IMG/VR virus record: IMGVR_UViG_3300000756_000020
Location: 1 to 40,354 of that record
Length of the DNA: 40,354 nt
Direction: 5' to 3' (one strand)
Source: a virus
Lineage: Duplodnaviria; Caudoviricetes
Shown: positions 8,639 through 40,210 of the stretch, one piece after another
How positions within the stretch are numbered: the first letter of the stretch is position 1
Layout of the letters: every line of letters starts with the position of its first letter
Notes under the pieces: generated by a model
Told to the model about the DNA's origin: nothing
What the model saw: the letters and a program-made list of their open reading frames with translations, nothing else
Database searches by the model: none
Translations under genes and position numbers: made by a program

Positions 8639-8664
8639 ACTTACCGCCCGCCCAACACAAACAT

Positions 8665-8698
8665 TTGGCCCCGACTCAATTAAGAGCCGGGGCCATTT
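8665..8698. terminator. hairpin between convergent blocks
   Basis: TGGCCCCGACTC-AATTAA-GAGCCGGGGCCA flanked by ATTT on both sides. Confidence 0.75.
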
Positions 8699-8706
8699 GC
8701 TTGCGG

Positions 8707-8919
8707 TCAGTCTGCTAGCAGCTTACCTGTCGGGGATCTAAGGTCATAGAACTGTAAATCAGAATCATTTACACGCTCACTGACATCATCCAGATCATCT
8801 GAATATATAAGCCCCGTCATTAAGTTTTCGTATATGTCTTCAGCATCGAGATCATTTTCTGCTGTGAAACTAAGTTCACCATTTCTTTCAGAAGAAAACA
8901 TTACTGTGTATTTAGGCAT
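8707..8919 (-). CDS. small acidic hypothetical protein
   Basis: 70 aa; GGAG RBS. Confidence 0.7.
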   Translation of the reverse strand: MPKYTVMFSSERNGELSFTAENDLDAEDIYENLMTGLIYSDDLDDVSERVNDSDLQFYDLRSPTGKLLAD

Positions 8920-9044
8920 TAACTTTCTCCCTCTGTAGGTTTACATTGGCAGTTTTCGCAATCACAGCCTCCTGGATTGCCTTCATTAAGTTCTTTCATT
9001 AAGTCATTGATTGTTTTAAATGGACCAACTGTTTCCATATCCAT
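8919..9044 (-). CDS. 41-aa Cys-containing micro-protein (not in ORF track)
   Basis: MDMETVGPFK...GCDCENCQCKPTEGES; coupled to both neighbours. Confidence 0.55.
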   Translation of the reverse strand: MDMETVGPFKTINDLMKELNEGNPGGCDCENCQCKPTEGES

Positions 9045-9331
9045 CATGACTCCCTCTTGAATGTAACCGCCCCTGCAAATACAACAGGCTTTTGCTTGAT
9101 GTCTAGTTCAGAGCCAGGTAACATCTTTACAGACTTACGTGTGGTGGTTGCTAAAAGCACCTCTTTGATCCATCGTTTTGCGGCCGAAGCATTAGCCCAT
9201 GCTGCTTGGTATGAATCGTATGGTACATCTATGCCTTCATCAGTTAGCACAATAGTTGCCAACCATGCCCCACCTTTTGTTTGGTTCTTAACGATACTCG
9301 CACTGAATAAACTACTTACTTTTTTAGCCAT
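9044..9331 (-). CDS. hypothetical protein
   Basis: 95 aa; AGGAG RBS. Confidence 0.75.
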   Translation of the reverse strand: MAKKVSSLFSASIVKNQTKGGAWLATIVLTDEGIDVPYDSYQAAWANASAAKRWIKEVLLATTTRKSVKMLPGSELDIKQKPVVFAGAVTFKRES

Positions 9332-9342
9332 TTATTTGCTCC

Positions 9343-9579
9343 TTATGAGTTGATGTTGCCATGGAACCCTACTTTTTTAAGATCCCTTAGTATATTTTTG
9401 GATGCTCTACGGTCTCCTAATGATTGGGGTCCAAAGAACACTGTCTGTTTTGTTTTAGGATTTACGACCTTTACATGATGTTTACCGTTGGTTATGCTGA
9501 CTTTTAGGCCCGCATCCTCCAAAGCATCCACTAATTTTCGTATTTCCTTAGTTTTTATATTGAGATTTGCAAATTGCAT
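9343..9579 (-). CDS. HicA-like mRNA interferase fold protein
   Basis: KEIRKLVDALEDAGLKV...GKHHVKV...SLGDRRASKNILRDLKKVG; alpha-beta-beta-beta-alpha pattern with G-x-H motif. Confidence 0.65.
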   Translation of the reverse strand: MQFANLNIKTKEIRKLVDALEDAGLKVSITNGKHHVKVVNPKTKQTVFFGPQSLGDRRASKNILRDLKKVGFHGNINS

Positions 9580-9647
9580 TTCACAACATTCTCCTTTCTA
9601 GTGTATGATTAGAGTGTTAGCTCTCATAGAACAGAGTTCACACCCTC

Positions 9648-9680
9648 AAGTCCCCCGGATTGCGCTCCGGGGGACTTTTA
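9648..9680. terminator. GC-rich hairpin, probable terminator
   Basis: AAGTCCCCCGGA-TTGCGC-TCCGGGGGACTT directly after the stop of the 9678-9878 ORF. Confidence 0.65.
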
Positions 9681-9878
9681 TATTTCCTCAATTGATTCGA
9701 TGTACGCGTTCTCTCCAGGCCTATTGAGTTGACCTACGTTAACCCACTGCTGTAGGTTTCTGTCGTACACCACTACATTCCATTCCCTGTTATCTTCATT
9801 AGATTGGTCATCAATACGCCATCTCTTAATGTTTACACGGAATACTACTCGTAGTTCATACATATCTTCATTAGCCAT
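9678..9878 (-). CDS. hypothetical protein
   Basis: 66 aa; AGGAGAGG RBS. Confidence 0.7.
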   Translation of the reverse strand: MANEDMYELRVVFRVNIKRWRIDDQSNEDNREWNVVVYDRNLQQWVNVGQLNRPGENAYIESIEEI

Positions 9879-9923
9879 ACATATACCTCTCCTTTACTAT
9901 TCTAGCCGATTGTTTGTGTTGGG

Positions 9924-10118
9924 TCAAACTTCCTCATCCATATCGTTATAGATTTCCCCAATTTCAGTCCAACCTGCTTCCATATCTTGGCGCCATAGAT
10001 GAGACTCCTCATTCATGATGCTTTCTTCAGCTCGTGCCTCAGCTTCCTGCCGGCTGTCTGCCTCAATCTCATAGTCATAGATTATATGATCATGGATTGT
10101 TACTGTGTATGTTGCCAT
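9924..10118 (-). CDS. small acidic hypothetical protein
   Basis: 64 aa; AGGAG RBS; YEIEADSRQEAE pattern resembles FTAENDLDAE in 8707-8919. Confidence 0.7.
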   Translation of the reverse strand: MATYTVTIHDHIIYDYEIEADSRQEAEARAEESIMNEESHLWRQDMEAGWTEIGEIYNDMDEEV

Positions 10119-10582
10119 GCTTTGTCTCCTTTTTGAATTGGTTGCTGACCTTCCTCACTAAAACACTCTGCAACAATTTTTGGGTGGACAGAGTCTCGCA
10201 TTGGTTTAAATGCGCTTTCCGGCCATCCAGCGTCAATTACTCGTCTGACTAATAAAGCCAATGAGTACTTACTGTCCATGTGTAGTGCGTAATTGAGGCA
10301 TTGGATAGCTTTTTCATGTTCACTTAGTTCATAGTAGAAAATGGCTTGTACTGTAATGAACGGAACTGAGTCTTGCGCCGTTGTATGCACAGACATGTAT
10401 TGCAGGAATTTGATACTTTCTTCTAATGACCACTTGATTGGTAAGCCCATCATCCAATCTCGTACTTGAAGGTCTTCATTGACAGCAAAGATAACTTTTT
10501 CAAGTTCTTCACCTTCCAAGTTGATGTCATTGTTGAGCATACCTGCCATCAACTCAACTGCTTCTTTACGTGATACTATCAT
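10100..10582 (-). CDS. DUF4192-like protein
   Basis: DLQVRD...ALHMDSKYSLALLVRRVIDAGWP resembles the actinobacterial DUF4192 C-terminus; start moved to the ATG after AGGAG. Confidence 0.65.
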   Translation of the reverse strand: MIVSRKEAVELMAGMLNNDINLEGEELEKVIFAVNEDLQVRDWMMGLPIKWSLEESIKFLQYMSVHTTAQDSVPFITVQAIFYYELSEHEKAIQCLNYALHMDSKYSLALLVRRVIDAGWPESAFKPMRDSVHPKIVAECFSEEGQQPIQKGDKAWQHTQ

Positions 10583-11034
10583 TTCTTCTCCTTTTTTATT
10601 ACTACACGAAACAATTTGTCTGGTGTAGGCCATTTGTATGGAAGATCACCACGTACACGAAACCGGTACCAAACCGGATCTTTACGCTTTAGGTTAGAGC
10701 GATGTGATTTATGGATCTCATCATTGCCCCACCACCAGGGTGGATCCCAACCTTGTAGGTCATGCTCCGCATAGATTTCCTGCAGTCGTGCTTGCACGTT
10801 GTCTTCATAGCCACGTTGTCTCCACTCTATGCACATAGCATTTGTATACATATAGAGATAGCCTTCGTGACCACGCCACATTACGGCTGCGGGGTGATTT
10901 CTCCATCCACTAGTTAGACCTAAGTTAGCCCTCAGAATCTGCAATGCTTCTACGCGTTGCTTGCCGAGTCTCTTATTGTCTAAGGATTTAGCTGTACGTG
11001 TTATGTCTGGCCAAGGTAAAAAGGTATTAACCAT
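10579..11034 (-). CDS. pyrimidine-dimer DNA glycosylase / T4 endonuclease V-like (MSMEG_6728 family)
   Basis: NTFLPW...LDNKRLGKQRVEALQIL...GWRNHPAAVMWRG...HKSHRSNLKRKDP. Confidence 0.85.
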   Translation of the reverse strand: MVNTFLPWPDITRTAKSLDNKRLGKQRVEALQILRANLGLTSGWRNHPAAVMWRGHEGYLYMYTNAMCIEWRQRGYEDNVQARLQEIYAEHDLQGWDPPWWWGNDEIHKSHRSNLKRKDPVWYRFRVRGDLPYKWPTPDKLFRVVIKKEKK

Positions 11035-11186
11035 TAGTCCTCCAGTAGCATAGGTATTAGATCTTCAGCTTCGTGTTTAGTTAGCAACGACCTAACTATT
11101 TCTTTATTTGCACTATATCTTTCTTCTTCACGTTGTTTAAGCATTTCGCTCATCCATATGTCAGGACGATCCTCGCGTAAACTCAT
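11034..11186 (-). CDS. hypothetical protein
   Basis: ATGA-coupled start MSLREDRP. Confidence 0.6.
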   Translation of the reverse strand: MSLREDRPDIWMSEMLKQREEERYSANKEIVRSLLTKHEAEDLIPMLLED

Positions 11187-11374
11187 ACTAACGCCGATAG
11201 TACAATACAGTTGTTCTGTGCCCACTCCTGTGCTGTAGAGATAGGCTCAATGGTTAGGTTTGCACCACCATCAGGTATCTCATCAGAGATGTGTAACAAG
11301 AACATTTGAGCAGAGTCGTAATCATTGAAGATTTCGATGTTCTCCTCGTTTAGGCTATCCCATATTGTGTACAT
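11183..11374 (-). CDS. hypothetical protein
   Basis: 63 aa; AAGGAG RBS. Confidence 0.65.
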   Translation of the reverse strand: MYTIWDSLNEENIEIFNDYDSAQMFLLHISDEIPDGGANLTIEPISTAQEWAQNNCIVLSALV

Positions 11375-11398
11375 GTTTGCTCCTTTGTTTGTGTTGGA

Positions 11399-13273
11399 TT
11401 AACGGCCGCCACGCTTTTTGATTGCTCCCATTACTACTGCCTTGGCAAATGGCAATAGGTCTCGTGCATTGTTGATGCGACCAAAGATCTCAGCACCATG
11501 TCTGAATTCTTTCTCGGTCATACCACGATCTTCGTAGTACTGGGCATCATCATTAGCCATGATTAGTGTCATGGCTGTGAGTACGCCACGCTTAGCAATA
11601 CGCTCAATGACCTCATCGTTCTTGGATGCGTCAAACGCACCATCAGTAACTATGAATAGCATTTTGTTTTTGCGTCGTGACGATATGAATAGTTGCTCTG
11701 CAGCAAGTAAAGTGGTATATGGATTAGTACCACCATTGCCGTAGATGAACTTGTATTTTGTACGGTGAGCTAGCTCGGTACGCTTGTACGCAACCTCAGC
11801 CTTATCATCAAAGGCATAGACTGTGACTGGCGCACCAATTTGCTCAAGTGCACGCTTGATTGTCCAACACGCTTCAGATGCTCTGCGGTCATTCTGACCA
11901 CTAGCCATACTGCCAGAACGGTCAATCATGATTACCGCTTCTACATCGGCACCATCATTGCCTTCATCCCAGCGATCAAAGGCTTCGTCAATCTCACAGC
12001 CTCTGAACACACGTTGCATATTTAGACGGCCACTAGCTTCTTCACGATGCCATGCGGGTTCGCATTCATCACGAAGACGCTCAAGTTCACGGGCAAACTT
12101 ACGATATAACAACACTGATTCATTAGGAACAGATGTCATATCGAACTTACCTGACTTGATTGTGTCGTCATGCTTACCATCACCACCGACAATTACTTTC
12201 TGCTTCGTCTTAACATCCTGCTGAACGTCTTTACGTTCTAGCACTGTCTGGATGGTATCCTCAAGCATTTCCTTGACGTTGTCTGGTATACCGCCAACAC
12301 TTTCGTGATGACCTGAGCCTGCTGATAAGTTACCAGGTTGTTTTTGTTCCTGGTTTCTAGCACGCATGTCAAGTGCTTCACTAGATGTTTGCGGTGCACT
12401 TACCGCAGCCGTGCTTTGTCCTTCGGTTGGGTTTGTGTTGGACTTAAGGTTTGGCTTACGACCACCACCTATTGGTTCAGCGGTACCCATGTTGCAACCT
12501 TTAGCTGCGTCCTTCTCCTGTGCTCTACCAGGTTCGGGACGACCTTTAGTAATGGGGTCACGTGACGTACAGCCATTGATACCTTGCGGTAGTTGTGGCA
12601 TGTCAAGATTACTTAAGACCTCATCATTGAATCGCTTGATGAGTTTCTGTGCCTTCTCATAGTCACGTGGGAATGCCAGCGTACGATACTGATCTACAAT
12701 ATCTACGATGGCTGGTAGTAAATCAGGGAAAGCAAACAAATCTCTGAATGATTGTCTGATTTCCAATGGAAGATACCTACGGCCACGCACCAGCATATAG
12801 TTACCTATAGCATGCTCGGGTGTGTTGCCTAGCCACCTAGCAACTGTGGCTGTTAGATACGGAATGATACTTGGATAGCGTGCTGTAAGTAGAGTCTCGA
12901 TACGCTGATCCTCTAGTATATTTGCAGCCTCTAAGTATTGATTCTCCATAACCCACTTCATGAATGTTGTTCCACGACGTGGTGTATAGAGATGGTGAGC
13001 CAACTCGTGATAGTTCAGGCCGTTGATCTGTGTCAATGCTTCCAAGTCAAGGTCATTGATCTCGTCTGCATTGAATGTAATAGATGCTCCATCGGACCAC
13101 GCTGGTGCGCTTCCTCCGGCAACAACATTCACAATCACAGGGTCACCACTTAGAACACGGTCTGCTTGCTCGTACACACGGCACAGAGCATTCAGCCTAA
13201 CAGAACGTAATTGAGATTCCTCATCACGTTCTTGTTGGTACCACGGTTCGGATGATAAATCATCGTTATACAT
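11399..13273 (-). CDS. VWA-domain protein with N-terminal HExxH metallopeptidase-like domain (CobT-like MoxR partner)
   Basis: HELAH and NILEDQRIE; flexible linker; MIDAS motif IDRSGSM, GGT, VTDG. Confidence 0.85.
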   Translation of the reverse strand: MYNDDLSSEPWYQQERDEESQLRSVRLNALCRVYEQADRVLSGDPVIVNVVAGGSAPAWSDGASITFNADEINDLDLEALTQINGLNYHELAHHLYTPRRGTTFMKWVMENQYLEAANILEDQRIETLLTARYPSIIPYLTATVARWLGNTPEHAIGNYMLVRGRRYLPLEIRQSFRDLFAFPDLLPAIVDIVDQYRTLAFPRDYEKAQKLIKRFNDEVLSNLDMPQLPQGINGCTSRDPITKGRPEPGRAQEKDAAKGCNMGTAEPIGGGRKPNLKSNTNPTEGQSTAAVSAPQTSSEALDMRARNQEQKQPGNLSAGSGHHESVGGIPDNVKEMLEDTIQTVLERKDVQQDVKTKQKVIVGGDGKHDDTIKSGKFDMTSVPNESVLLYRKFARELERLRDECEPAWHREEASGRLNMQRVFRGCEIDEAFDRWDEGNDGADVEAVIMIDRSGSMASGQNDRRASEACWTIKRALEQIGAPVTVYAFDDKAEVAYKRTELAHRTKYKFIYGNGGTNPYTTLLAAEQLFISSRRKNKMLFIVTDGAFDASKNDEVIERIAKRGVLTAMTLIMANDDAQYYEDRGMTEKEFRHGAEIFGRINNARDLLPFAKAVVMGAIKKRGGR

Positions 13274-13285
13274 ATGGTTCCTAAC

Positions 13286-14692
13286 TTAGTTCGGTTGTAG
13301 TTGACGTGCTGCTACCCATTGGGATAGTTGTTCATCAATAGTTACTGTAGCAGCTTGTTCCATTGTTATTGGAACTTCGATGCCGAAGTCTGTCTTGATG
13401 TTGTGTTCGTGTGTCTGGAAGACTAGACGAACAGATGCTTGCTCCTCCGCACTGAAGTGAGCAATGAAGTTCTCAACCGCAAACTCGTAGCCAAGATCAG
13501 CATCCTTAATGAACGCTTCAACTTCGATGAGCATGTTAGTTGAGATTGGTGTCTCGTACTGACCCTTAGCAGCTTCAGCACGAAGTTGCTTAGTTACTAG
13601 CAAGAGAGCCTTAGATGAAACCAGCTTAGCCTCTACTGCGTCATCGTAATCCCACGACAATTGAATGTCAAAGCGATTGCGCATAGCAAAGTTAAGCGGT
13701 GTTGTACCGATGTAGTCTGGGTTCATGGTTGCAAAGATTGTTAAGTCTTTGTGTGCCACGATTGTTTCACCCATGTGATCGAGCAATGTAATGCATCGAC
13801 GACCATCTGTTAGCGGATACAATGTAGTGTAAATCTTAGGGCTGATGAAGTTCATCTCATCGAGCAATAAGACGCCACCGTTACGTACAACGTCAGTTAC
13901 TGGACCATCGATCCAACCGTAACCTCCGATGCCATCAGGAATGAAACCACCGAATAGCTGGCGAGATTCCATAGATGCGTTACCTGATACTGTAGCCATA
14001 CGTAGACCGCGAGATGCTGCCCACGCTTCTACAGCTGTAGTCTTACCTGGACCTGTAGGGCCATAGATAAGAACGTTGATATTGTTAGATCGTGCTTTGT
14101 CGAAGGCTTTGAAGTCTTCAACACCGTATACTTTACGGTGCACATAACGTTCCGCCAACTTCATTGGGGGAACTGTTGCTAACGATACATTGAATGATGG
14201 TGCCGATTGTGCTGGTACTAGATCATCCATTGTTTGTGTTGGTACAGCAACTACTAAAGGAACTGTAGTGCCTGTACTTGAACGGTTATCCGTCACGTAT
14301 TTCTCCAGACTGTCGTCTCCGACATTGACTTGTTCGTAGAAATCACAAATGATATCTACAACTGGTGTGGTATCTGTTGTTGTCATTGCCCTACCATGCT
14401 TGTCGCATGCTTTGGTACCCAACACTGGTGAATAACCTTTTGAATCCATCGCACGATTATCTGCTGGAGTTACATACACTCCAACAGGTGTTCGTGTCAA
14501 TGTTTCTTTGTCCGATATCTCTTGTGAGATATCTTCTAGGTTAGTCTCTTCCCACTTGCTGTTGTGGCCTTTAGTGCCATCAGTCAAGCGAGAATAGATA
14601 CGCACAGCCCCATCATGTGGGACAACAAGGACTTGACGTCGCTTGTTACCCATGTTTGGTTCGTACGATTCAGTGAACATTGCGATATCCAT
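13286..14692 (-). CDS. MoxR/CbbQ/CobS-like AAA+ ATPase
   Basis: GPTGPGKT Walker A, LLLDEMN Walker B, ATMNPDYIGT sensor 1, AMRNRF arginine finger. Confidence 0.9.
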   Translation of the reverse strand: MDIAMFTESYEPNMGNKRRQVLVVPHDGAVRIYSRLTDGTKGHNSKWEETNLEDISQEISDKETLTRTPVGVYVTPADNRAMDSKGYSPVLGTKACDKHGRAMTTTDTTPVVDIICDFYEQVNVGDDSLEKYVTDNRSSTGTTVPLVVAVPTQTMDDLVPAQSAPSFNVSLATVPPMKLAERYVHRKVYGVEDFKAFDKARSNNINVLIYGPTGPGKTTAVEAWAASRGLRMATVSGNASMESRQLFGGFIPDGIGGYGWIDGPVTDVVRNGGVLLLDEMNFISPKIYTTLYPLTDGRRCITLLDHMGETIVAHKDLTIFATMNPDYIGTTPLNFAMRNRFDIQLSWDYDDAVEAKLVSSKALLLVTKQLRAEAAKGQYETPISTNMLIEVEAFIKDADLGYEFAVENFIAHFSAEEQASVRLVFQTHEHNIKTDFGIEVPITMEQAATVTIDEQLSQWVAARQLQPN

Positions 14693-14747
14693 ATATCATA
14701 CCCCTTCTCTGGTATTGGTATCGTTCCCTTACGTTGTGTAAGGAAAA

Positions 14748-14987
14748 TTAATCGTCACCCAGAAGCTTATCTTCCATGATGGTGGCGAAAGTAAACATGG
14801 CCTGCTTATGTTCAGGCCATTCTGTTATTAGATTAAACAGGATGTCATGCTGTACTGCTTTTTCTATAACTTTATGAAACTTCTCAACAGCATAGTCTAA
14901 GAACTCTTCACGTTCCTCTTCAGGAATCATGTTGATACTAAACTCTTCGTCTGGCATTGAGTCGTCATCATCACATTCATAACACAT
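14748..14987 (-). CDS. acidic hypothetical protein
   Basis: 79 aa; GGAG RBS. Confidence 0.7.
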   Translation of the reverse strand: MCYECDDDDSMPDEEFSINMIPEEEREEFLDYAVEKFHKVIEKAVQHDILFNLITEWPEHKQAMFTFATIMEDKLLGDD

Positions 14988-15233
14988 GTGCTCTCCAATC
15001 TATTTAAGTAGTCTGGTTGGCTTACCCCCGTTGCGCACAGGGACTGGATGTCTCCGCACCTTGTCTTCTCATCTCCCATACAGTTAGTTACTTCGTACTA
15101 CTAATGCGTGAGCGTATAAATTATTCGGGTCTAGGGTCTATCAAGTATGCTTGAGGTTGGCTTAGCCAACCAGACTAGGGGAATAACTTATCAGTGGAAT
15201 TTGGTTTTCTGACGCGTAGGTCATCCCGCCCGA

Positions 15234-15554
15234 TTACTGATCTAAGTTAGTCCAGTGTGTAGGCTCTGGAGTGTAAACGTCACTTAATACGTTTTGCATC
15301 CAGGGCTTATAACGATGCGACAGTCGAACCTTACCACTTGGCCGTGTAGATTCATAACAACCTACATAGCTTTCGTGGTAATGTTCATAGCTTTTGTATC
15401 GTGTGTTGTACACATCCAAGCTTTTTTGACTTGGTTGTATACGGCGACCACAGTTACCGCAACTGAGCAAGTCAGCAACGGTTTCTTTTTCGGTAGTGAT
15501 ACTGGTTAACCATGCTTCAGTATCAGGCCCTTCGTTTGTCCAACTTTTTGACAT
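15234..15554 (-). CDS. hypothetical protein (CxxC)
   Basis: 106 aa; AAGGA RBS. Confidence 0.7.
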   Translation of the reverse strand: MSKSWTNEGPDTEAWLTSITTEKETVADLLSCGNCGRRIQPSQKSLDVYNTRYKSYEHYHESYVGCYESTRPSGKVRLSHRYKPWMQNVLSDVYTPEPTHWTNLDQ

Positions 15555-15576
15555 GTGGTTCCTTTGTTTGTGTTGG

Positions 15577-16092
15577 TTAGACTGTTGGATATAGTTGTGG
15601 GGACTCTAGCATTTCCCACCTGTGTGGTGCTGATGATGTTGTGTTATGTAGCAAGGTATTAAAACCCTCGTGGTCCATCTGCTTATCTAAAGCGGTAGCC
15701 ACGGTGGATAAAAATCTACCCGCCTTTTCTGGTTTGTTGCGTAAGACCGCACGTTTTGCAACTTCGGTCTCTCCCCATGCGTATGAAAGCGCAGCTAAGT
15801 ATTCACTATAAATACGTAGCATTGTTTCATTGTCATCGGGACAGGTTGACACAGCAGCAGCAAGCAATTCAATTGCTTGCTGTTGTTGTGGTTGATTGAT
15901 TCTTCCATCGGTGAGCATGTGATGAATCACAGCATCACGAAAAGTCTCTGACTTTTCAGTTATCTCGATGAGTGTGGTGGGCATCAAACCCCCCGCTAAC
16001 ATGTCGCCTGTAATCTTATGGTCTGGTAAACCATGAGTCATATGATTACGGAGCGAGATGTTTGGATCATACTGTAGGTGTAGGTCCAGCAT
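15577..16092 (-). CDS. divergent DUF4192-like helical protein
   Basis: TFRDAVI...YLAALSYAWGETEVAKRAV resembles the RD...LLAxxAWxxG pattern. Confidence 0.5.
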   Translation of the reverse strand: MLDLHLQYDPNISLRNHMTHGLPDHKITGDMLAGGLMPTTLIEITEKSETFRDAVIHHMLTDGRINQPQQQQAIELLAAAVSTCPDDNETMLRIYSEYLAALSYAWGETEVAKRAVLRNKPEKAGRFLSTVATALDKQMDHEGFNTLLHNTTSSAPHRWEMLESPQLYPTV

Positions 16093-16804
16093 AGCTAGCC
16101 ACGATCCTTTCTAGATCAGTTAGTGGTTGTTTGTATATCTTTCTATCCTTTACTCTGATTGGGGAACCGTCCCAAAGTAAAGAAACTCGTTTGCTACCAT
16201 AGTCACGCTTGCCTGTGCCACTACATGAGTAGCATTCGTATCCGCGTGGTACTTTGTGGCTTAACAACTCGTTATGTTCACACAACATGGCGTGTCTACT
16301 TCGTTGTTTCTCCACATCTGATAGTGCTGTATCAGGATGCTTAGGGCATATGCCTGTATTTGTATTTACATCCCAACAAGTATTGCCATTACACCACCCA
16401 TCAACACGTCCAATTTGTTTACACGTACGACAACCTTGTATTTTTGGTGGAGTCAATGCAGCGTCTTGTTCAAATAATCTAAACTTGAACTGGCGTTGAA
16501 CAACTTCTATACCGCAGTATTTCCACAAGGTGTAGCGTGTGCTTTGTGCTTTTAATGGATTGTATGGGTGACCCCACATTGAGGTTGCCTGCTCACCATT
16601 TAAGGTCATGGTGTCATCAGGATGAATAGTAATAAGTGGAAAACGATTTAACCAAGGTATTACTATTTGAATATCACCGCCACGTTTGAATTTATTGGCG
16701 TGTTGTATACGTAACTCACGGTCATACAATGTGCGTTCGTATTTTTTGCGTCCACTGGCTAAATAGGCTTCCCATTCAGCGTATGTGAACATACGGTTTG
16801 TCAT
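16067..16804 (-). CDS. hypothetical protein with DnaJ-type CxxCxxxG zinc-finger motifs
   Basis: CRTCKQIG and CYSCSGTG with further Cys/His between them. Confidence 0.7.
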   Translation of the reverse strand: MTNRMFTYAEWEAYLASGRKKYERTLYDRELRIQHANKFKRGGDIQIVIPWLNRFPLITIHPDDTMTLNGEQATSMWGHPYNPLKAQSTRYTLWKYCGIEVVQRQFKFRLFEQDAALTPPKIQGCRTCKQIGRVDGWCNGNTCWDVNTNTGICPKHPDTALSDVEKQRSRHAMLCEHNELLSHKVPRGYECYSCSGTGKRDYGSKRVSLLWDGSPIRVKDRKIYKQPLTDLERIVASYAGPTPTV

Positions 16805-17115
16805 TCTGCCTCCGATGTTTCAAATAAGCCTGCGTAACAGATTACAGGCTCTGGGTCCTCCATGTCAACAAATTGAAGCTCGATGACACGTTCGCGGTCC
16901 CGTTCGAGTGTTTGTGTTGGCTCATCATCTGTATACCATACGGATGTGAGTGATATCACAGAGGATGTTGGCTTTAACATCTTAAGCGCAAAGCCTAAGC
17001 CATCCATCATCCCACTGTAATAGGCGCGGGCATTTTGTTGTTCAATGCCGTGTAGTTCAGCGTGTTCTTCTAGTATTTGCTGCTCAATGGCAGCAATAAC
17101 TTTCTTCTTACGCAT
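16801..17115 (-). CDS. hypothetical protein
   Basis: 104 aa; overlaps neighbours as in an operon. Confidence 0.7.
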   Translation of the reverse strand: MRKKKVIAAIEQQILEEHAELHGIEQQNARAYYSGMMDGLGFALKMLKPTSSVISLTSVWYTDDEPTQTLERDRERVIELQFVDMEDPEPVICYAGLFETSEAE

Positions 17116-17383
17116 TTAATAGTTCCTGTAACTTCTCAGGATCAAATGCTGGTGCGATGTTTGATGGTTGGTACACTTTGCCAGTCTTCCAATGTGGAAT
17201 TGACTTGTGATTCCAACGACCACCTGCTTTCTTCCAAGCCTCACGCTTGGCATCATTGGCAGGGCTTCGTCCATTAATATGTTCGAAGTTAGTCTTTGGT
17301 GGTTGAGCAGGGCCTGGATTCTTCTTGGCGGCCTTGCCATTTGGTCGGTTATCATTACGATTACCTTTTGATTTTGTAGCCAT
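17108..17383 (-). CDS. basic hypothetical protein
   Basis: 91 aa; Lys/Asn/Pro-rich. Confidence 0.7.
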   Translation of the reverse strand: MATKSKGNRNDNRPNGKAAKKNPGPAQPPKTNFEHINGRSPANDAKREAWKKAGGRWNHKSIPHWKTGKVYQPSNIAPAFDPEKLQELLNA

Positions 17384-17626
17384 TTACTTGTCCATCCTTT
17401 CGGCTTGGTTTGTTTGTGTTGAGACGCTGTCATACAGCGTATCGATGCCATCATCCCATAGCATCAATGCTTCTTTGCGGGTGCAGCCATGAAATAGCAC
17501 TGCTTCTATTAAGAATAGTAGTTTACTTGTCGTGTTGTCAAACGTTGGGGAAGGTACTTCTTGTTCTTGCCATACATACTGAACTCCGTCTGGAGTCTGT
17601 ACATATTTACCTACTAGCTCTGTCAT
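17384..17626 (-). CDS. hypothetical protein
   Basis: 80 aa; abuts the next gene. Confidence 0.65.
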   Translation of the reverse strand: MTELVGKYVQTPDGVQYVWQEQEVPSPTFDNTTSKLLFLIEAVLFHGCTRKEALMLWDDGIDTLYDSVSTQTNQAERMDK

Positions 17627-17740
17627 TAGTTACCCCTATCTGCATGATATTCATCACACGTTTTGTCAGTGCAAGTGCACGGACACTCACAAGAAAAGGC
17701 ATTGCGATGACACACTTCGCAAGGCTCTATATCAAACACG

Positions 17741-18028
17741 CTAGTCATTATCGTCAAAGATCATACGATAACTTGTGCCCCATCTACGATAGGGTGCGTC
17801 TATTAAGTTGTACAACTTCCACCACATGCGACCTACTCTGGATATTTCTCCATAGTAGTATTCATCGGAGTCTTCATGCCATAGTGCTCTGTATAGAACA
17901 GGCGAAGACATGTGGTTACATGCGTTAGCAAACCAACGTAATGGAAGTATGTTGGTCTTGTGTTCAGGTACAGTTTTAAACTGGCTTAGGTCATCATCTT
18001 TGCCTAAGTCTGATGGTTCTAGTTCCAT
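17741..18028 (-). CDS. hypothetical protein
   Basis: 95 aa; GAAAGGA RBS. Confidence 0.7.
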   Translation of the reverse strand: MELEPSDLGKDDDLSQFKTVPEHKTNILPLRWFANACNHMSSPVLYRALWHEDSDEYYYGEISRVGRMWWKLYNLIDAPYRRWGTSYRMIFDDND

Positions 18029-18330
18029 TGCTATCCTTTCTGTAGTGGGCGATGTTTATGTTGGAACACTGTCATAGACAGTAAAAGACACACAGGCAAC
18101 GAGGCGGTGTTAGTTGAATTATCAGTAACCCACTCAACTTTATTTACCATTAGCACCTAACATGGCAACTTAATAATGGGGGACATTACATCCCCCAATC
18201 GCTCTACGCGGCGTGCACTATGCTAACAGGAACAAGTACTCAGATATACATACCTCTCGTTAGTTCAGTATGTGATCCTTGTATCAACTGGGGTATTGCG
18301 AGCTACCTATGTGCCTTTTGCTATCTATGA

Positions 18331-18363
18331 TGAGCAGTTTAGCCTTGTCATGCTCAGGACAGG
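18331..18363 (-). ncRNA. putative H-type pseudoknot motif, copy A
   Basis: RNA CCUGUC-CUGAGCAU-GACAAGG-CUAAAC-UGCUCA. Confidence 0.6.
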
Positions 18364-18422
18364 AGTTCTTTTACCTCAGGAAGAACTATAGAAACCAACC
18401 GCGCTAGGCGTTATTAAGTTGT

Positions 18423-18863
18423 TTAGCGGATGAATGATGCCCATGTTGAAGACGAAGTGATCTTGAATTCAGTATCAGTTGCACCTTCGATTAGAGCGAT
18501 AGCATTTTCCACTTGTTCGTACTCACTAACATTGTTGTTATAGTTAGTGTCTTTGTACTGAGGTTTACGACCTTGATTAGGGCGCTCACCCATTACTGCT
18601 TCGAACGTTGCTTGGTTAAAGAACACAGAGACATAAGGTCCTTTGTATCCTCCAGCATTGAAGTCGAAGTCAATTGCTTTAGACATGTTCTTTTTAGCCC
18701 ATGCTTCAGCTTTCTTATCCCAGGCCTCTTGACGCTTATCGAGAGTTGAGTAGTTTTTATCCCATTCAACTATCTCTGCATCCATACGCTTGAGTGTTGC
18801 TTTCAACTTAGCGACTAGATCTTTCTTAGCCCAAGTTGTTGCAATTACTTTAGTTGTAGCCAT
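18423..18863 (-). CDS. hypothetical coiled-coil protein
   Basis: Start moved to MATTKVI, after AAGGAGGG. Confidence 0.75.
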   Translation of the reverse strand: MATTKVIATTWAKKDLVAKLKATLKRMDAEIVEWDKNYSTLDKRQEAWDKKAEAWAKKNMSKAIDFDFNAGGYKGPYVSVFFNQATFEAVMGERPNQGRKPQYKDTNYNNNVSEYEQVENAIALIEGATDTEFKITSSSTWASFIR

Positions 18864-19298
18864 TGCTGGCCCTCCTTTTGTACGTGGATACGCACCCGGC
18901 TGGGTGTGTATTGTGGTGCGTGTTTGTGTTGGTACATGTTTTATAGACCACATGCTCTGTGTCTTTTGACTGGCACTACCTATTTCTTTTGGTCGCTGTA
19001 CATAGCCATTACAGTGATACACCCACGAAGTTGTATCGAGTGTTAAGGGTCCGGCCGGGGGTTCAGCCTTACAGTAGGGTTACCTATTCTCATAGGGATG
19101 CCTAGTTCAGAGCCTTAGCAGCCTCCATTCCTCGCCTGTTCATTGGTCCAGTAGTGTTCCTTGGATTGTCTATACAATCCGATAGTAACGCGTTACGTTA
19201 CTATCGCATCATATAGAAAAATAGGGTGGGGGAGAGCTCCCTCAAACTCTCAACCCCACCCCGCCTAGTTCCGCATGACTAGGCTCCCTCACATAAGA

Positions 19299-19529
19299 CT
19301 ATTCTTTGTGTGGTGTAACACCGAAGTCGCCAACAACATGTCTGGCTACTTCTAAATAGATCTCTGCGTTAGAGAATAAATCTTCGGGATGATACAAGCC
19401 ATCTGGGTGAACACCCCAGTTGTGCTTGAGGTATTGCTTGAGTCCAGGCACAAGCCTGTCTACAAACTCAGCAGAGGTCATATAACCTGCTGCTCTTAGT
19501 TCTTTGTCTGATTTAACATTTCCTGCCAT
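19299..19529 (-). CDS. hypothetical protein
   Basis: 76 aa; GGAGAGGA RBS. Confidence 0.7.
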   Translation of the reverse strand: MAGNVKSDKELRAAGYMTSAEFVDRLVPGLKQYLKHNWGVHPDGLYHPEDLFSNAEIYLEVARHVVGDFGVTPHKE

Positions 19530-19728
19530 TTGTTCATCCTCTCCATGTTGCGTAGTTTTAATCTGTAATTAAGTAGCACCATGCTTAGTTGTTCTTCCAG
19601 ATACTGTAGTTCTTCGTCTTTAGACATTGTCAACATCTTTTAGTAGCGTGTTCTCTAACCTTAGTGTATGTACTGTGATTTTTAGGTCAATCAGTTCATC
19701 TTGTAGTCGTTTGTGTGCTTCTCGTAGT

Positions 19729-19911
19729 TCAGCTAACTTTGCTAGAGCATCGACATCCGGCATTCTTCTTCCTTTCATCACGTAAGGCTGCCTGTAGGCC
19801 GCGGATTTGTTTGTGTTGGTTGATGTTTTCTTTCCAGAATAGACACATGACTGTTACTGAACCCAGCAGAGCAATCATTATGGCTAGTGTTGTTCCATTA
19901 TCTAGTACCAT
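19729..19911 (-). CDS. small membrane protein
   Basis: Hydrophobic segment LAIMIALLGSVTVMCLFW followed by a basic tail. Confidence 0.6.
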   Translation of the reverse strand: MVLDNGTTLAIMIALLGSVTVMCLFWKENINQHKQIRGLQAALRDERKKNAGCRCSSKVS

Positions 19912-20180
19912 TACGCTACCTTTCTGTTAGTTGTTACATATGGTGCTTGAGATACAAAGCCTGCTCCGTCATACCATTTACCAGCCCACACACCATAGAG
20001 TCCGGGGAATGATTTGGCATAGACATCACAAGCCTTGAACATTGGACATTGAGCACAGATAGTTTTAGCCTGTGCTATGTTTGACTTCCATTCTTTCCGA
20101 TCTTCAGGGAAGAAAAGCTCGGAATCAACTTGAGCACACAACTGTGTGCCATCATAGACACTCACTCTGAGTATGTCCAT
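19911..20180 (-). CDS. whiB: WhiB-family Fe-S transcriptional regulator
   Basis: CAQVDSELFFPE...AKTICAQCPMFKAC...GVWAG (four Cys plus G[VI]W[GA]G turn). Confidence 0.9.
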   Translation of the reverse strand: MDILRVSVYDGTQLCAQVDSELFFPEDRKEWKSNIAQAKTICAQCPMFKACDVYAKSFPGLYGVWAGKWYDGAGFVSQAPYVTTNRKVA

Positions 20181-20368
20181 AGCATTTTGCCATCACACTC
20201 TTGCTTGTATAACTTACCTTCGTCAATCATCGCAAGTGTCTCATCTTGCCCCTCGTCATAGAAGTAATCAGCGATACCCGCTATGATGAAGTACTTTGTT
20301 GCCTTGTATGTGATGATGATCAGAAGGATGTCAATCAATAGATTGAACCCATTGTAGAACATGATCAT
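20162..20368 (-). CDS. small membrane protein
   Basis: N-terminal hydrophobic stretch; GAAAGG RBS. Confidence 0.65.
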   Translation of the reverse strand: MIMFYNGFNLLIDILLIIITYKATKYFIIAGIADYFYDEGQDETLAMIDEGKLYKQECDGKMLWTYSE

Positions 20369-20508
20369 TTGTTACCTTTCTGTTGTAGGATGCCCAATAC
20401 AGGGCGGGAGGTACACAGGGCAATATGACTTACTTGATGCGTCGATCTTCACCCATATTCCTGTGTACCCGCCGACTCATACTGGAGCGGGGGGAATGTT
20501 TGTGTTGG

Positions 20509-20715
20509 CTATCTACCTGATGACCTACCATGCTTGAGGTCAGGACTATCTACTGTTACATATGTAAAGCCTTGCTTGGGCATAAGAACAAGGCGATAGT
20601 TAGCCATAGCACCTGCTATGCCCTTGGATACACACACCTTGTCCATACACCAGTCATAACCACACTTTTGTCGTGCTATTGAATACTCAGTACCACAGTA
20701 AATACATGTAGCCAT
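20509..20715 (-). CDS. small Cys-rich protein
   Basis: CIYC...WCMDKVC; GGAGG RBS. Confidence 0.7.
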   Translation of the reverse strand: MATCIYCGTEYSIARQKCGYDWCMDKVCVSKGIAGAMANYRLVLMPKQGFTYVTVDSPDLKHGRSSGR

Positions 20716-20915
20716 TACTCCTCCAATACATCTTCTAGGAACCTGTTTATTTCTTTATGAATGACGGGGTCAATGTATTGATCCATCTGCCAGTCACTCA
20801 AATTCATCTCATTTGTAAAAACTAAACAGCCATTACTCAGGCTTATCTCTTGCCTAGGGGTAGGCCAATAGCCCATATACCAGCGATGAAGTATTGCTTG
20901 CCATAGATATTTCAT
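20715..20915 (-). CDS. hypothetical protein
   Basis: 66 aa; coupled to the next gene. Confidence 0.6.
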   Translation of the reverse strand: MKYLWQAILHRWYMGYWPTPRQEISLSNGCLVFTNEMNLSDWQMDQYIDPVIHKEINRFLEDVLEE

Positions 20916-21063
20916 CTTCCTAACCTCCTTCCTACTAATACCATCTTGAAATCAAAATAGGTGCTACACCTGCGGCAATACACAGGCTCAGCGTTATTGT
21001 ATAGATAATCATCTAGACGCTTGTTGAAGCACACCTTGTGATGCTTTTTTTCTTCACGACGAC

Positions 21064-21210: not shown

Positions 21211-21252
21211 AGTTCTCCTCCTTTCTTGGGGGAAATTTTTGCGGGGGACTTT

Positions 21253-32097: not shown

Positions 32098-32258
32098 TGG
32101 CTAAAAAAGAAGTTTGGGATACACCAGACCCAAGTAAAAAAGATAAGAAGCTTTCTACTAAGAAGAAGTCTGCAGCTAAGGCACGTGCCAAAGCTGCAGG
32201 TCGCCCTTACCCTAATCTAGTAGACAATATGGCTGCCGCAAAGAAAAAAGGCAAGTAA
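32097..32258 (+). CDS. 53-aa Lys/Ala-rich protein (not in ORF track)
   Basis: MAKKEVWDTPDP...AKARAKAAGRPYPNLVDNMAAAKKKGK. Confidence 0.75.
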   Translation: MAKKEVWDTPDPSKKDKKLSTKKKSAAKARAKAAGRPYPNLVDNMAAAKKKGK

Positions 32259-32548
32259 TGGCTGAGACAAAGAAGTTTGGTCCGTATAAGGGCTCTAAAG
32301 AGAACGGTGGGCGTCCTATCTATGTCTATAAGACAAAAGGTAAAGATGGCAAATGGCACACCACTTCTAAGAACAAAGCTCGCGCAGATTATGAAGACAA
32401 GCACGGAAAGTTATCTAAAGATACTGACGTAGATCACAAAGACAATGGTGGCCGTAAGGGTCACGACAAAATGTCTAACCTACAAGCTATGAGTCATTCT
32501 AAAAACGTAGGTAAAGAAAACAAGCGTAGAGCTGGGAAGAAGAAATAA
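32258..32548 (+). CDS. HNH-like endonuclease
   Basis: DVDHKDNGG...SNLQAMSHSKN. Confidence 0.65.
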   Translation: MAETKKFGPYKGSKENGGRPIYVYKTKGKDGKWHTTSKNKARADYEDKHGKLSKDTDVDHKDNGGRKGHDKMSNLQAMSHSKNVGKENKRRAGKKK

Positions 32549-36822: not shown

Positions 36823-37230
36823 ATGGCAGTAGAAAATATCGCACCAACACCTCAGTTCCCTGAGAAAGTTGGCGCAACTTACGAACGCAAGATGACACCT
36901 GCAACACCAGGACTTCGTGGTCCACTTCGCTTTGAAGAAGGTATTGCAACAGATACAGATGTCCCAAATGATTTTCAAGTTGGACTAGACCAGGGCTATG
37001 ACACTCCAGAAGGTCGTCCAAACCATAACGTAAATGTTATGGAGAAGTATGCTGATGAAACTATGCAGCAACGCGCACACGTAGGCTCAGCATCATGGGT
37101 AGAGGCACCAACTTACCTAAATGAGTTTGCTCAAGGCAACTTCGGAGATCATTCTGAGATTGTAATTGAAGAAGTAGTTCGTTCAGGTGGTCGTTATAGC
37201 CGCATGAACCCCGCTTCAGTGCTTGACTAA
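36823..37230 (+). CDS. hypothetical head-region protein
   Basis: 135 aa; AGGAG RBS; between terminase and portal. Confidence 0.8.
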   Translation: MAVENIAPTPQFPEKVGATYERKMTPATPGLRGPLRFEEGIATDTDVPNDFQVGLDQGYDTPEGRPNHNVNVMEKYADETMQQRAHVGSASWVEAPTYLNEFAQGNFGDHSEIVIEEVVRSGGRYSRMNPASVLD

Positions 37231-37306
37231 AAGTACGCTAGAATATACTGGTCTCCAGCTCTGTTACCCTTTCTCCAGAGCTGGAGACCTACTAGAAGGG
37301 TAGATC

Positions 37307-37573
37307 ATGGCACAGCCTAGCGATCCAGAGATGTACAACGCTCTCAGTAGAACAGCGCGTGCAAAGTATCCTTCACAAAGAACAAAGGGATTAAGCTATC
37401 AAGCAGCAAAATGGTTATCAGCAGAGTATGCACGCAATGGCGGAGGATACGTTGATTCTATTAAGCAAGTTGATCCTAAGAAAAGGGATTACAAGCAAGA
37501 AGCTTTAGATAAAGAAAAACGCAAAAAGCAAGAGCATAAGCGTGAAATGAAAAAACGAAACCTAGTAGTTTAA
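37307..37573 (+). CDS. basic hypothetical protein
   Basis: 88 aa; ARAKYPS...AKWLSAEYARNGGGY. Confidence 0.7.
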   Translation: MAQPSDPEMYNALSRTARAKYPSQRTKGLSYQAAKWLSAEYARNGGGYVDSIKQVDPKKRDYKQEALDKEKRKKQEHKREMKKRNLVV

Positions 37574-37606
37574 GTTGGGGGCAACTATGAAGTCAGGATG
37601 TAATCA

Positions 37607-39325
37607 ATGAGCGGTGGTATGGATTTTTCTCCTCCCAGTTATAGGGCGGCGTCGTCTGACTTAACCATCTCCATTTCACCACTAGGTTTAGTGGAACTTG
37701 CTGATGAAGAATTTGAAGTACACGGTCCACGTCTAAACCGTTACTCTATGAACTGGGCTATGTACCTAGGTCACCACTGGTCTTATCGCCGTGAAATTGG
37801 CGAAGCACAATTAGTATTTAATTATTACCGGGCATTTACAGATTTTATTTGTAACTTTACATTTAACCGCGGCGCACAATTCAGAAGCCCACTATCAACT
37901 GAGGCAGTGGTCCCAGACGTATTAAAGCGTGTGTGGGAAATTGATAACGATAAGCACGGTACTCTTTGGGAAATGGGCCAACAAGGCGGGGTATCCGGTG
38001 ACTGTTTTGTTAAGGTTGCATACGAAGAGGGCTTTGTAGACTCAGTAGGTCGACCACACGCAGGGCGTGTACGCGTACTACCACTTAACTCTTCTTTTTG
38101 TTTTCCAGAGTTCCACCCACACGACCGCTCACGCCTAATTCGTTTTAAGCTGAAGTATCGTTTCTGGGGTACTTCTGTAGAGGGCACACGTATGGTCTAC
38201 ACATACACTGAAATTTTGACTGATGACCGCATTGAAGAATATATCAATGACGAGCTTATTGACTCACGTCCTAACCCAATTGGCGTAGTGCCAGTTATCC
38301 ATATTCCTAACGTGCGTATTTCTGGATCCCCATGGGGACTTTCAGATTGCCACGACATCATTGCCCTTAATCGTAACTATAACGAGGTTGCAACAGATGT
38401 TGCAGACATTGTTAACTACCACGCAGCACCAGTTACAGTTATTACAGGAGCTAAGGCTTCAAGCCTCGAGAAGGGCCCTAAGAAGGTCTGGGGAGGCTTA
38501 CCCAAGGAAGCACAGGTATTCAACCTAGAAGGCGGCGGACAGGGCCTCCAGGGGGCTCTGGAGTACCTTAAAACGATCAAGGTATCAATGCATGAAATGG
38601 TTGGCGTACCTGAGTCAGCTCTAGGACAAGTTCAACCTATTTCTAATACCTCTGGCGTAGCTTTGGCTATTCAGTACCAGCCATTGATGGCACGTTACCA
38701 ACAAAAGACAATTCAATACGGAGAAGGAATTCAACGTATCAATGAACTTGTTCTTCTTACACTCGCATTTAAAGAACCAGAAGTATTTACATATAACCCA
38801 GAAGTTAATGGAAATATCAAGGCGGGTCAACTTCCTCAACTAGACCTATTGGATCCTATTACCTACCAATCAGTAGTTCATTTCCCACCTCCTTTGCCAC
38901 TAGATAAGCTCATCGTGCTGAATGAAATTCAACAAAAAATGAATTTGCAGCTTGAGAGCCGTGAAGGTGCGCTTCGCCAACTTGGCGAAGAATTTCCACA
39001 TGAAAAGCTGGAAGAGATTAGAGCAGAGCTTATTGCCGATGCTAAGTCTGATGGTGCACTTAACCTCATCAAACAACAGATCAACTCAGCTATCACTTCT
39101 TTAACTGGTATGATGCCGGATGGAACCCTACCTCCTGGAGCAGCTCCTGGAGATGGAATTGGTCCTGGACCTCTTGGGCAACCTGGAGTTATTACACCAT
39201 TTGAAGAGCAGACGTTAGCGCAGATGCAAACCGAGTTAGTTACTCAAGCGTACGGCACAAAACTTGCCCCACGTGACGTTTCAGGTGAGCAAGAAGATAG
39301 CCCTAACTCTGAGGAAAATAAGTAA
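37607..39325 (+). CDS. portal protein (SPP1 gp6-like)
   Basis: NYYRAFTD, GVSGDCFV, NPIGVVPVIHIPN...WGLSD, SNTSGVAL; position after terminase. Confidence 0.88.
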   Translation: MSGGMDFSPPSYRAASSDLTISISPLGLVELADEEFEVHGPRLNRYSMNWAMYLGHHWSYRREIGEAQLVFNYYRAFTDFICNFTFNRGAQFRSPLSTEAVVPDVLKRVWEIDNDKHGTLWEMGQQGGVSGDCFVKVAYEEGFVDSVGRPHAGRVRVLPLNSSFCFPEFHPHDRSRLIRFKLKYRFWGTSVEGTRMVYTYTEILTDDRIEEYINDELIDSRPNPIGVVPVIHIPNVRISGSPWGLSDCHDIIALNRNYNEVATDVADIVNYHAAPVTVITGAKASSLEKGPKKVWGGLPKEAQVFNLEGGGQGLQGALEYLKTIKVSMHEMVGVPESALGQVQPISNTSGVALAIQYQPLMARYQQKTIQYGEGIQRINELVLLTLAFKEPEVFTYNPEVNGNIKAGQLPQLDLLDPITYQSVVHFPPPLPLDKLIVLNEIQQKMNLQLESREGALRQLGEEFPHEKLEEIRAELIADAKSDGALNLIKQQINSAITSLTGMMPDGTLPPGAAPGDGIGPGPLGQPGVITPFEEQTLAQMQTELVTQAYGTKLAPRDVSGEQEDSPNSEENK

Positions 39326-39433
39326 TTTAGGCTGACAAATTAGCAATAATTTGAAAGGCTTATCCCAAACAATAACCGTAGGTCATCGTGGCATTAAATC
39401 GGACAACGACCTCTTAAACCTAAGGAATAACGC

Positions 39434-40210
39434 ATGTCAGAAACATCTAATCTAGTTGATAGTGCAGTGGCCCAAGAAGCATTTTTATCAGAAGCTAACC
39501 CAACACAAACAACTAACACAGTGCCCCAGACAAATCAATTTATTGAACAAAAGGGTTACTCAGAGCAAGACTTACAGCGAGTACGTGAACAAGAAAAATC
39601 TAAGCTTTATCCTCAAATCGATTCTCTTAAAGAAGAAATTAATCTTCTAAAGAAAGATCGTGAAGATCGCTTAGCTGAAGTTAACCGTATGGCTGAAGAA
39701 AAAGCAGCAGAAGCTAAAGCCGCAGCAGAAGCTGATATGGATGTTCGTTCTCTTCTTGAACAGAAGGAAAAAGAATGGGCAGAAAAATTAGCAGAAGAAA
39801 AGGCAGAGCGTGAGCGTGCTTTTACTCTTCTAGAACGTGAACGTCAATACTCAGAAGTTACTGCGTATCGTACACAGCGTTTAGAAGAAGAACGGGATAA
39901 TATTATCCCTGAGCTTGTAGATCTAATCTCAGGAAATAATCCCGAAGAGATAGAAGAAAGTATTACAGGACTACGTGAGCGCAGCTCACGAATCTTGGAA
40001 TCGGCGCAATCTGCAATGCAGAACGCTAGAAAAGAAATGACAGGCAGTAGAGTAACATCTCCTGCATCCGGACCTATGGACACTAACTCGGACCAACAAT
40101 CGTTTACATCGGAGCAGATTGCTTCTATGTCGGTTACTGAATACGCAAAATATCGAGAGAAGCTACTTGGAAGAGCAGCCTCTAATCGTAATAAGGGAAT
40201 CTTCGGGTAA
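39434..40210 (+). CDS. capsid scaffolding protein
   Basis: E/K/R/A-rich coiled coil between portal and capsid; C-terminal IASMSVTEYAKYREKLL. Confidence 0.8.
   Translation: MSETSNLVDSAVAQEAFLSEANPTQTTNTVPQTNQFIEQKGYSEQDLQRVREQEKSKLYPQIDSLKEEINLLKKDREDRLAEVNRMAEEKAAEAKAAAEADMDVRSLLEQKEKEWAEKLAEEKAERERAFTLLERERQYSEVTAYRTQRLEEERDNIIPELVDLISGNNPEEIEESITGLRERSSRILESAQSAMQNARKEMTGSRVTSPASGPMDTNSDQQSFTSEQIASMSVTEYAKYREKLLGRAASNRNKGIFG

Follow-up and report, generated by a model that had tools for sequence, protein, structure and literature searches.

What purpose is served by a short asymmetric word that recurs along the transcribed strand of a phage genome? We asked this of the 12-mer YCRACAYAAACH in a 40-kb piece of an uncultured freshwater phage (Duplodnaviria; Caudoviricetes; IMG/VR record IMGVR_UViG_3300000756_000020, positions 1 to 40,354, all 40,354 nt of which are called the window here), where it occurs in 15 copies, 11 of them exact and four with one mismatch. 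The original prediction, made from the letters of the window, had listed these copies, all of which were found again at the same places and on the same strands, and had read them as a block acting on DNA or as a signal in RNA; both mechanisms proved less well supported than a third, absent from that account. On balance, we consider the word likely to be a programmed single-strand nick site in phage DNA, probably recognised and cut by a 96-residue HNH protein encoded in the late region.

The word lies far above chance, as had been claimed: 19 matches with up to two mismatches were found in the window compared with 4.76 ± 2.26 in 100 shuffles, none of which reached 19, and the word with its sub-words supplied the top-ranked 9- to 12-mers. 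All 15 copies are on the strand of the surrounding genes (12 minus, 3 plus), and they are evenly spaced in the window (coefficient of variation 0.35; P=0.00075 against random placement); the median was 1,210 bp over 205 spacings that are not independent of one another. Twelve of the 15 fall in one block of genes, called 'early' because of its analogy with the left genome end in a distant relative, Streptomyces phage BRock, where a block matching it is found (PMC7453282). Copies 9911, 11386, 15565 and 20497 begin 0–1 nt past a stop codon, and 8652 and 26783 lie between a stop codon and a hairpin scored as terminator-like, both as originally described; the further statement that copies inside genes are read in different frames was wrong, as 12430, 14231, 16909, 17411 and 39500 share one common frame (P/S-T-Q-T). 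Public contigs were aligned to the window from the DNA runs X3 and X4 (shallow lake metagenomes of one study), from X1, a deep run, and from two RNA runs, X2 and X18; the list below gives the block and the copies together with the X3 and X4 contigs that stop inside or bridge them.

8707–22853, minus strand: early gene block, with 12 word copies; the sole long opposite-strand block in complete relatives
8652–8663, plus strand: copy at the end of the ribonucleotide reductase (RNR) operon, 3 nt before a convergent terminator; its orientation is the reverse of that in the early block, and nearly all relatives keep it
9911–9922, minus strand: copy 1 nt past a stop codon, filling the spacer of a sigma-70-type promoter (9927–9899)
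11386–11397, minus strand: copy between the vWA stop codon and the next ribosome-binding site; an X3 contig starts inside it (11391)
12430–12441, minus strand: copy with A12C in the linker of the vWA gene; an X3 contig ends at letter 5 (12437)
14231–14242, minus strand: copy in the linker of the MoxR/CobS-type ATPase gene, with codons fixed in 30 of 30; an X3 contig ends at letter 5 (14238)
15565–15576, minus strand: copy right after a stop codon, ahead of a ribosome-binding site; one X4 contig runs across it
16909–16920, minus strand: copy inside a gene for a 104-residue protein
17411–17422, minus strand: copy with C1T near the end of a gene for an 80-residue protein
18053–18064, minus strand: intergenic copy with C7T; an X3 contig ends at letter 5 (18060)
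18921–18932, minus strand: copy in the leader of a gene for a 146-residue protein
19808–19819, minus strand: copy downstream of whiB
20497–20508, minus strand: copy right after a stop codon; an X3 and an X4 contig start inside it (20502 and 20501)
21744–21755, minus strand: copy with which the early block opens; one X3 contig runs across it
26783–26794, plus strand: copy with C1T between a stop codon and a terminator hairpin; one X3 contig runs across it
39500–39511, plus strand: copy in the gene following that for the portal protein

Contig ends in X3 and X4 accumulate inside these copies. Among the 32 ends of the 16 pieces listed (of 82), 6 lie within the word against 0.37 expected (P=1.6 × 10−6); three of the six had been seen first and prompted the test, and the other three came from 22 new ends, for which about 0.25 would be expected (P about 0.002, calculated by hand). 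The right-hand ends at 12437, 14238 and 18060 (three of 16 right ends) all fall at letter 5 of the word, and the left-hand ends at 11391, 20502 and 20501 fall at letters 7, 7 and 8. Independently of these, three unrelated IMG/VR contigs from three samples (L079, L239 and L342) start exactly with CACAAACA. Two of the three belong to the loci anchored on proteins, for which 204 true contig ends were estimated and no start at a different letter of the word was found (0.03 expected; P=4 × 10−4). All six coding-strand ends read CCAA^CACAAACA, with the break between letters 4 and 5, and the opposite-strand ends lie 3–4 nt away. Physical ends are the simplest cause, because the contigs match over their full length, a repeat of 12 letters would not suffice to branch an assembly graph (k=31 for the Logan assemblies) and letter 4, which flanks the break, is invariant among the one-mismatch copies.

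A nick would fall in the CCAA-strand between letters 4 and 5, since an end-repaired fragment end reports the 5' end and the CCAA-strand ends are identical in six of six cases; the variation of the opposite-strand ends over letters 7, 7 and 8 is as expected if the DNA snaps opposite the nick. On the strength of the contig ends, we therefore regard a nick in the coding strand as the likely form of the break. The 3–4 nt overlap between left and right contig ends would also suit a site of replication or recombination, at which a nick or short 5' overhang made in the cell yields 3' ends that prime synthesis or invade homologs. A UvsX-like recombinase is encoded by relatives. In a sister group, DnaA-box clusters lie beside the word and its inverted pairs close perfect palindromes with equal energy on both strands, so that these pairs, with their palindromic cores and DnaA boxes, would be origins. 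No DnaA box lies near any copy in the window, however, the copy number varies from 3 to about 19 in complete genomes, and transient intermediates would rarely dominate contig ends; we consider this reading improbable.

The word is strongly conserved in relatives. It was present in all 39 loci retrieved through the ATPase gene (2–13 copies each, at most one mismatch) and in 29 of 30 further records, and complete genomes hold most of their 3 to about 19 copies in one block, which is the early block in most of them, with copies more widely spread in G450, G452, G453 and G461. In the ATPase gene the four codons that make up the word, in a gappy linker, are kept by 30 of 30 distinct sequences, whereas at 85 conserved four-fold columns the top codon has a mean share of 0.65; this synonymous-site comparison bears out the earlier view that protein coding does not explain the word, which is under nucleotide-level selection. 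The earlier picture of a selected, phage-wide and oriented signal concentrated in the early region is in this respect upheld. Among 62 distinct one-mismatch contexts, 34 carry C1T, 17 carry C7T, 9 change A12 and 2 are of other kinds.

These tolerated changes are transitions that allow G·U pairs, which could speak for a word in mRNA that is bound by a protein or paired with an antisense copy, giving a processing stem, antitermination or decay. Such an RNA signal is also in keeping with the sense orientation in the window, with a T-poor 3' flank and, for several modules of G006 and L245, with a greater stability of the inverted-pair hairpins on the sense strand, other pairs being equal on both strands. 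Yet the same changes are tolerated in either orientation, variation is confined to three of the five C positions and one A position, and in predicted mRNA the word is no more unpaired than a planted control (0.75 versus 0.71; P=0.17). Copies occur in a promoter spacer and in untranscribed DNA, the breaks are found in DNA runs with none among the listed ends of the RNA runs, and the 91- and 95-residue proteins tested as readers occur in word-less phages. The related ideas of an antisense-guide RNA and of a terminator U-tract were rejected, as there was no excess of hairpins 3' of the word and both orientations carry the same variants. An RNA role is, in our judgement, very unlikely.

Still less credence is due to a host chromosome signal of the Chi or KOPS kind copied by the phage, even though the word is invariant across distant phages and lies near a probable genome end: 401 Actinomycetes genomes, which may not include the actual host, gave 81 matches against 66 for a reversed control (summed by hand) and hence no enrichment, only 58 of the 401 had any match, and the one cluster seen consisted of non-ribosomal peptide synthetase (NRPS) repeats. 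Two of the 81 matches are in G280 and G024, which are marked as unpublished, and none of the conclusions rests on them. Moreover, both orientations occur, and in one relative, G451, the word has changed as a unit.

Orientation proved to be less uniform than the claim 'always on the transcribed strand', which stands for the window and the close group but fails for the family as a whole. In long open reading frames (ORFs) of 11 genomes, strict copies were 26 sense and 6 antisense. In the sister group the early block is built of modules in the order terminator, inverted copy, 40–100 bp, forward copy, promoter; of the distinct copies in 13 selected loci, 33 were sense and 44 antisense, both orientations tolerating the same changes, and all seven copies of L291 are antisense. 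The bias in long ORFs, taken with the presence of both orientations between terminator and promoter, indicates that orientation is constrained mainly where DNA is transcribed.

An asymmetric word whose orientation is tied to transcription in the window could be a polar operator that works without cutting, through a phage protein, possibly a catalytically quiet HNH, that represses early promoters and blocks polymerase in one direction. The promoter around copy 9911 (TTGACC-N17-TAGAAT) has the same arrangement in 10 of 207 distinct contexts, copies of the sister group adjoin promoters, and L5-type sites have the same traits (PMC9283540, PMC6550527). Against such an operator, an elongation block does not predict DNA ends at a single letter, and the seven reversed copies of L291 do not suit it. 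The earlier observation that no repressor or integrase is visible was confirmed in a scan confined to the 79 ORFs of the window and 35 core ORFs of a complete relative, and BRock lacks lysogeny genes. Furthermore, the same word is common to phages whose early blocks share one gene only (the window and G006), whereas stoperator words drift with their repressors (PMC6550527). We judge a polar operator unlikely, if less so than the other alternatives.

The comparison with the stoperators of Cluster A phages (L5 gp71, TipsytheTRex repressor) can be made explicit. Their asymmetric 12–13-bp words, oriented with transcription in short gaps and at a promoter (PMC9283540, PMC6550527), resemble the word studied here in layout only: 20–30 stoperators are distributed genome-wide, in contrast to 3–19 copies lying mostly in a single block of 13 kb and frequently within essential genes; the ORFs scanned here yielded neither an immunity repressor nor an integrase; DNA ends lie inside the word; and the word is conserved across distant phages.

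If the word is cut, what cuts it? G451 carries 10 copies of YCRCAACAAACH, changed at letters 3–5, in the same classes of site as the standard word (the vWA linker, after the vWA stop codon, before a ribosome-binding site and before a terminator), and a word changed as a unit around the break points to one phage-encoded reader. When seven word-bearing genomes were compared with five word-less ones, a handful of genes went undetected in the word-less set: the replication initiator, which has merely diverged, three uncharacterised genes and one further gene.

32258–32548, plus strand: 96-residue, cysteine-free HNH protein, candidate reader and nickase, in the late region; a beta-sheet followed by VDH..N..D..NL..N..EN

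Matches to the profile of this protein were found in 13 of 13 sequences that carry the word or its variant and in 0 of 6 word-less ones (the G007 fragment, G011–G014 and the first 100 kb of BRock); among long contigs found through the HNH, 14 of 15 carry the word and the fifteenth is G451 with its variant. G007, at first sight a word-less relative, is a fragment that lacks the early block. The protein matches PHROG 4590 (E=1.7 × 10−6), and D59, H60, N63, D70, N74, N83 and N88 are invariant in 39 homologs; the His general base, the structural Asn and the metal-binding residue are present in a beta-beta-alpha core that aligns to residues 72–103 of I-HmuI. This homing endonuclease, which nicks one strand of an asymmetric site, was also the best match in a profile search of the PDB (E=0.37), and the predicted structure (pLDDT, the predicted local distance difference test score, 82) matched its residues 10–109 with Z=6.0 and a root-mean-square deviation of 3.5 over 86 aligned residues, the next match being I-PpoI (Z=4.8). 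Compared with I-HmuI (PDB 1u3e), the 96-residue protein corresponds to the N-terminal beta-sheet and HNH core and, unlike that 174-residue enzyme, has no C-terminal part. It also differs from a mobile homing gene of the I-HmuI type in being free-standing and 70–99% conserved among aligned homologs, and the phage keeps the presumed targets in its own genome (15 in the window) where homing endonucleases lose theirs. Given a nick, this protein is probably the nicking enzyme.

Other candidate readers were discarded. A basic 91-residue protein occurs in 21 loci of other phages without a copy; a 95-residue protein was found in word-less genomes and in 62 of 80 loci lacking a copy; G006 has neither the HicA-like ORF nor the ATPase/vWA pair; and word-less genomes contain WhiB and KTSC-like genes as well as the winged helix-turn-helix replication initiator, the latter in diverged form. 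The 91-residue protein (17108–17383, minus strand) is likely disordered, has an invariant core rich in H, W and R and is common to smaller word-less phages; it has only 17 representatives at 50% identity, no match in the PDB or the atlas and no known relative. The 95-residue protein (9044–9331, minus strand), the only early gene shared with G006, has a confident structural model without a clear PDB match (best Z=5.8), and lies between the replication initiator and a DnaC-like loader in G011–G014 and at the end of the early block in the window.

Several points weigh against a nick made by the HNH protein. All of the evidence for breaks consists of assembled contig ends, not reads, and X3 and X4 belong to a single study of unknown library type with 16 of 82 pieces listed; of the 16 ends listed for each of X1 (deep), X2 and X18 (both RNA), none lies in a copy; three copies (15565, 21744 and 26783) are bridged by X3 or X4 contigs; and two pattern scans over 241 loci, which were too unspecific, gave 35 full copies, none at a contig end. 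Breakage is therefore partial. The ends would be equally compatible with a staggered cut of both strands that leaves a 3-nt 5' overhang. In known nick systems only one strand is nicked, but 3 of the 15 window copies are on the other strand, antisense orientation is found in 6 of 32 in-gene copies, and the inverted pairs of the sister group, 40–100 bp apart, would come near to a double-strand break if both copies were nicked. As for the enzyme, the fold match and the profile match to I-HmuI are middling; BRock apart, the word-less genomes probably form a single clade, so that the co-occurrence rests on few independent losses; and four of the 13 genomes with both HNH and word were found through the HNH. 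BRock has a word sharing ACAAACA in its early region and no detectable HNH homolog, K82D as a specificity residue failed to predict the variant word when three fragments were compared, and small HNH genes near the terminase can also be packaging cofactors.

That the DNA of some phages has site-specific nicks has been known since the 1960s; the short asymmetric consensus of such systems recurs about 5–14 times. In phage tf, 14 nicks fall after letter 4 of a 9-bp consensus (TACT/RTGMC), 11 of them in the early half, and the T5 nicking genes sciA and sciB map to the late region; the same 2012 report names nicking genes for T5 only, describes the function of the nicks as still unexplained and mentions flexibility for packaging as a suggested purpose (PMC3517423). 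The system in the window shares with those of tf, the phiKMV-like phages and T5 a short fixed asymmetric word in 14–15 copies, clustered in the early part, with two or three tolerated substitutions; as in tf, the break follows the fourth letter (placed here by contig ends rather than mapping), and as in T5, the gene of the candidate enzyme, whose nickase role is predicted, is late. It differs in its unrelated 12-bp word, its even 1.2-kb spacing, its setting in an actinobacterial, myophage-like family and its use of both strands, the choice of which goes with gene direction, while the sister group has inverted pairs. Because the one-strand rule fails, we do not count it as a member of the tf/T5 class.

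By analogy with these phages, nicks at the word would be made late and be present in virions. In transcribed DNA the orientation of the word would leave the template strand whole, so that early genes could be read before ligation, which is plausible; in the untranscribed DNA between terminator and promoter, either orientation would be tolerated. The least certain step is the use: nicks every 1.2 kb beside a genome end may act as swivels or flexible joints for the DNA that is packaged or enters first and is transcribed, and we offer this role as swivel or hinge only tentatively. The fullest form of the idea is more doubtful again: at 1.2-kb intervals the HNH would puncture the non-template strand over the first 13 kb of DNA in the virion, letting host RNA polymerase transcribe, and reel in, capsid-anchored DNA with no build-up of twist.

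The wider setting is as follows. Besides the genes named above, the window encodes WhiB, Hsp20, an HslV-like peptidase, a class II RNR, the MoxR-type ATPase/vWA pair, a terminase and a portal protein. WhiB has been used as a marker of actinobacterial hosts (PMC10914622), and its presence in the window points to such a host. The terminase is 52% identical to that of BRock, a myovirus that is virulent, carries a terminal repeat of 221 bp and lacks lysogeny genes (PMC7453282). The genomes of complete relatives measure about 100 kb, with nearly all genes in one direction except for an opposite-strand block of 12–14 kb made up mostly of small genes. At 22193–23319 of the window, contig depth is raised in X1 and G-run sequence resembles the left end of BRock; this is likely a genome end with a short terminal repeat. 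A long terminal repeat spanning the early block was rejected, as X1 shows no doubled depth and the repeat of BRock is just 221 bp. The RNA run X2 gave flat contig depth on the window and is uninformative on expression.

Additional features were seen around the word in relatives. In the early region of BRock (L040: 2541, 5016, 12574 and 12758) there are four copies of GGTACAAACAT(C/T)GGC, the word that shares ACAAACA; it was not found repeated in 22–23-kb stretches of LuckySocke, GiJojo and pSt2308. Clusters of DnaA boxes (consensus TTATCCACA) lie between the word and sigma-70-type promoters in L216:4980–8330 (G006), L314, L341 and L320, and possibly serve as origins or in DnaA titration. Inverted word pairs close 20–27-bp perfect palindromes or Y-shaped twin mini-palindromes in L245:1601–1662 and 2792–2859, L344:857–925, L314 and L341. 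GGG(T/A)GGG runs, which could form G-quadruplexes, adjoin the word in L333:117–176, L340:3001–3062, the L291 modules and L216:6340–6420, and CGACACGCCG, containing the GACAC motif of WhiA, lies upstream of promoters in L285 and L291. A literature search, with most subscription papers and all supplements outside its scope, found the word and its complement only in unrelated papers and no paper on repeats or nicks in this phage family.

Within the window, a queuine tRNA-ribosyltransferase-like gene (4939–6408, plus strand), annotated as dpdA-like in GiJojo, suggests 7-deazaguanine modification of the DNA; the CCAA-strand of the word is without any G. A conserved HicA-like gene (9343–9579, minus strand; Pfam E=0.0012; invariant H35) lies downstream of the promoter that holds copy 9911, with no antitoxin recognised adjoining it. 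A 10-bp inverted repeat (18087–18096 and 18959–18975, minus strand, about 870 nt apart) flanks the gene for the 146-residue protein and a structured non-coding stretch (18050–18420), and one contig of X4 skips 17627–18330. Second-rank repeats are ACCTGATAACAG, with three plus-strand copies at 5829, 6410 and 21922, and the palindrome CTATGATCATAG, with two copies at 1980 and 23089. An Rfam scan of the window gave no family at gathering level and three weak matches attributable to chance.

Should polymerase indeed draw in nicked, capsid-anchored DNA as in the most far-reaching form of the proposal, the nicked strand would be set by the direction of transcription and not by the packaging strand, an enzyme–word pair could be retuned by a few residues, with G451 as the example, and such systems could be detectable family-wide from contig ends alone. 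A nick site as such, if real, would add a large freshwater phage family, with an estimated 1,300 or so stored stretches carrying a related terminase, to those with nicked genomes, and with it a minimal candidate enzyme that comes with a natural specificity variant; to our knowledge, a 96-residue HNH would be the smallest sequence-specific phage nickase, and with its 12-bp site it would be a useful tool enzyme. It would also bring two rules unseen in the known cases, namely that the nicked strand follows transcription and that the spacing is even, and these rules separate the idea of flexibility for packaging from that of a swivel for early transcription.

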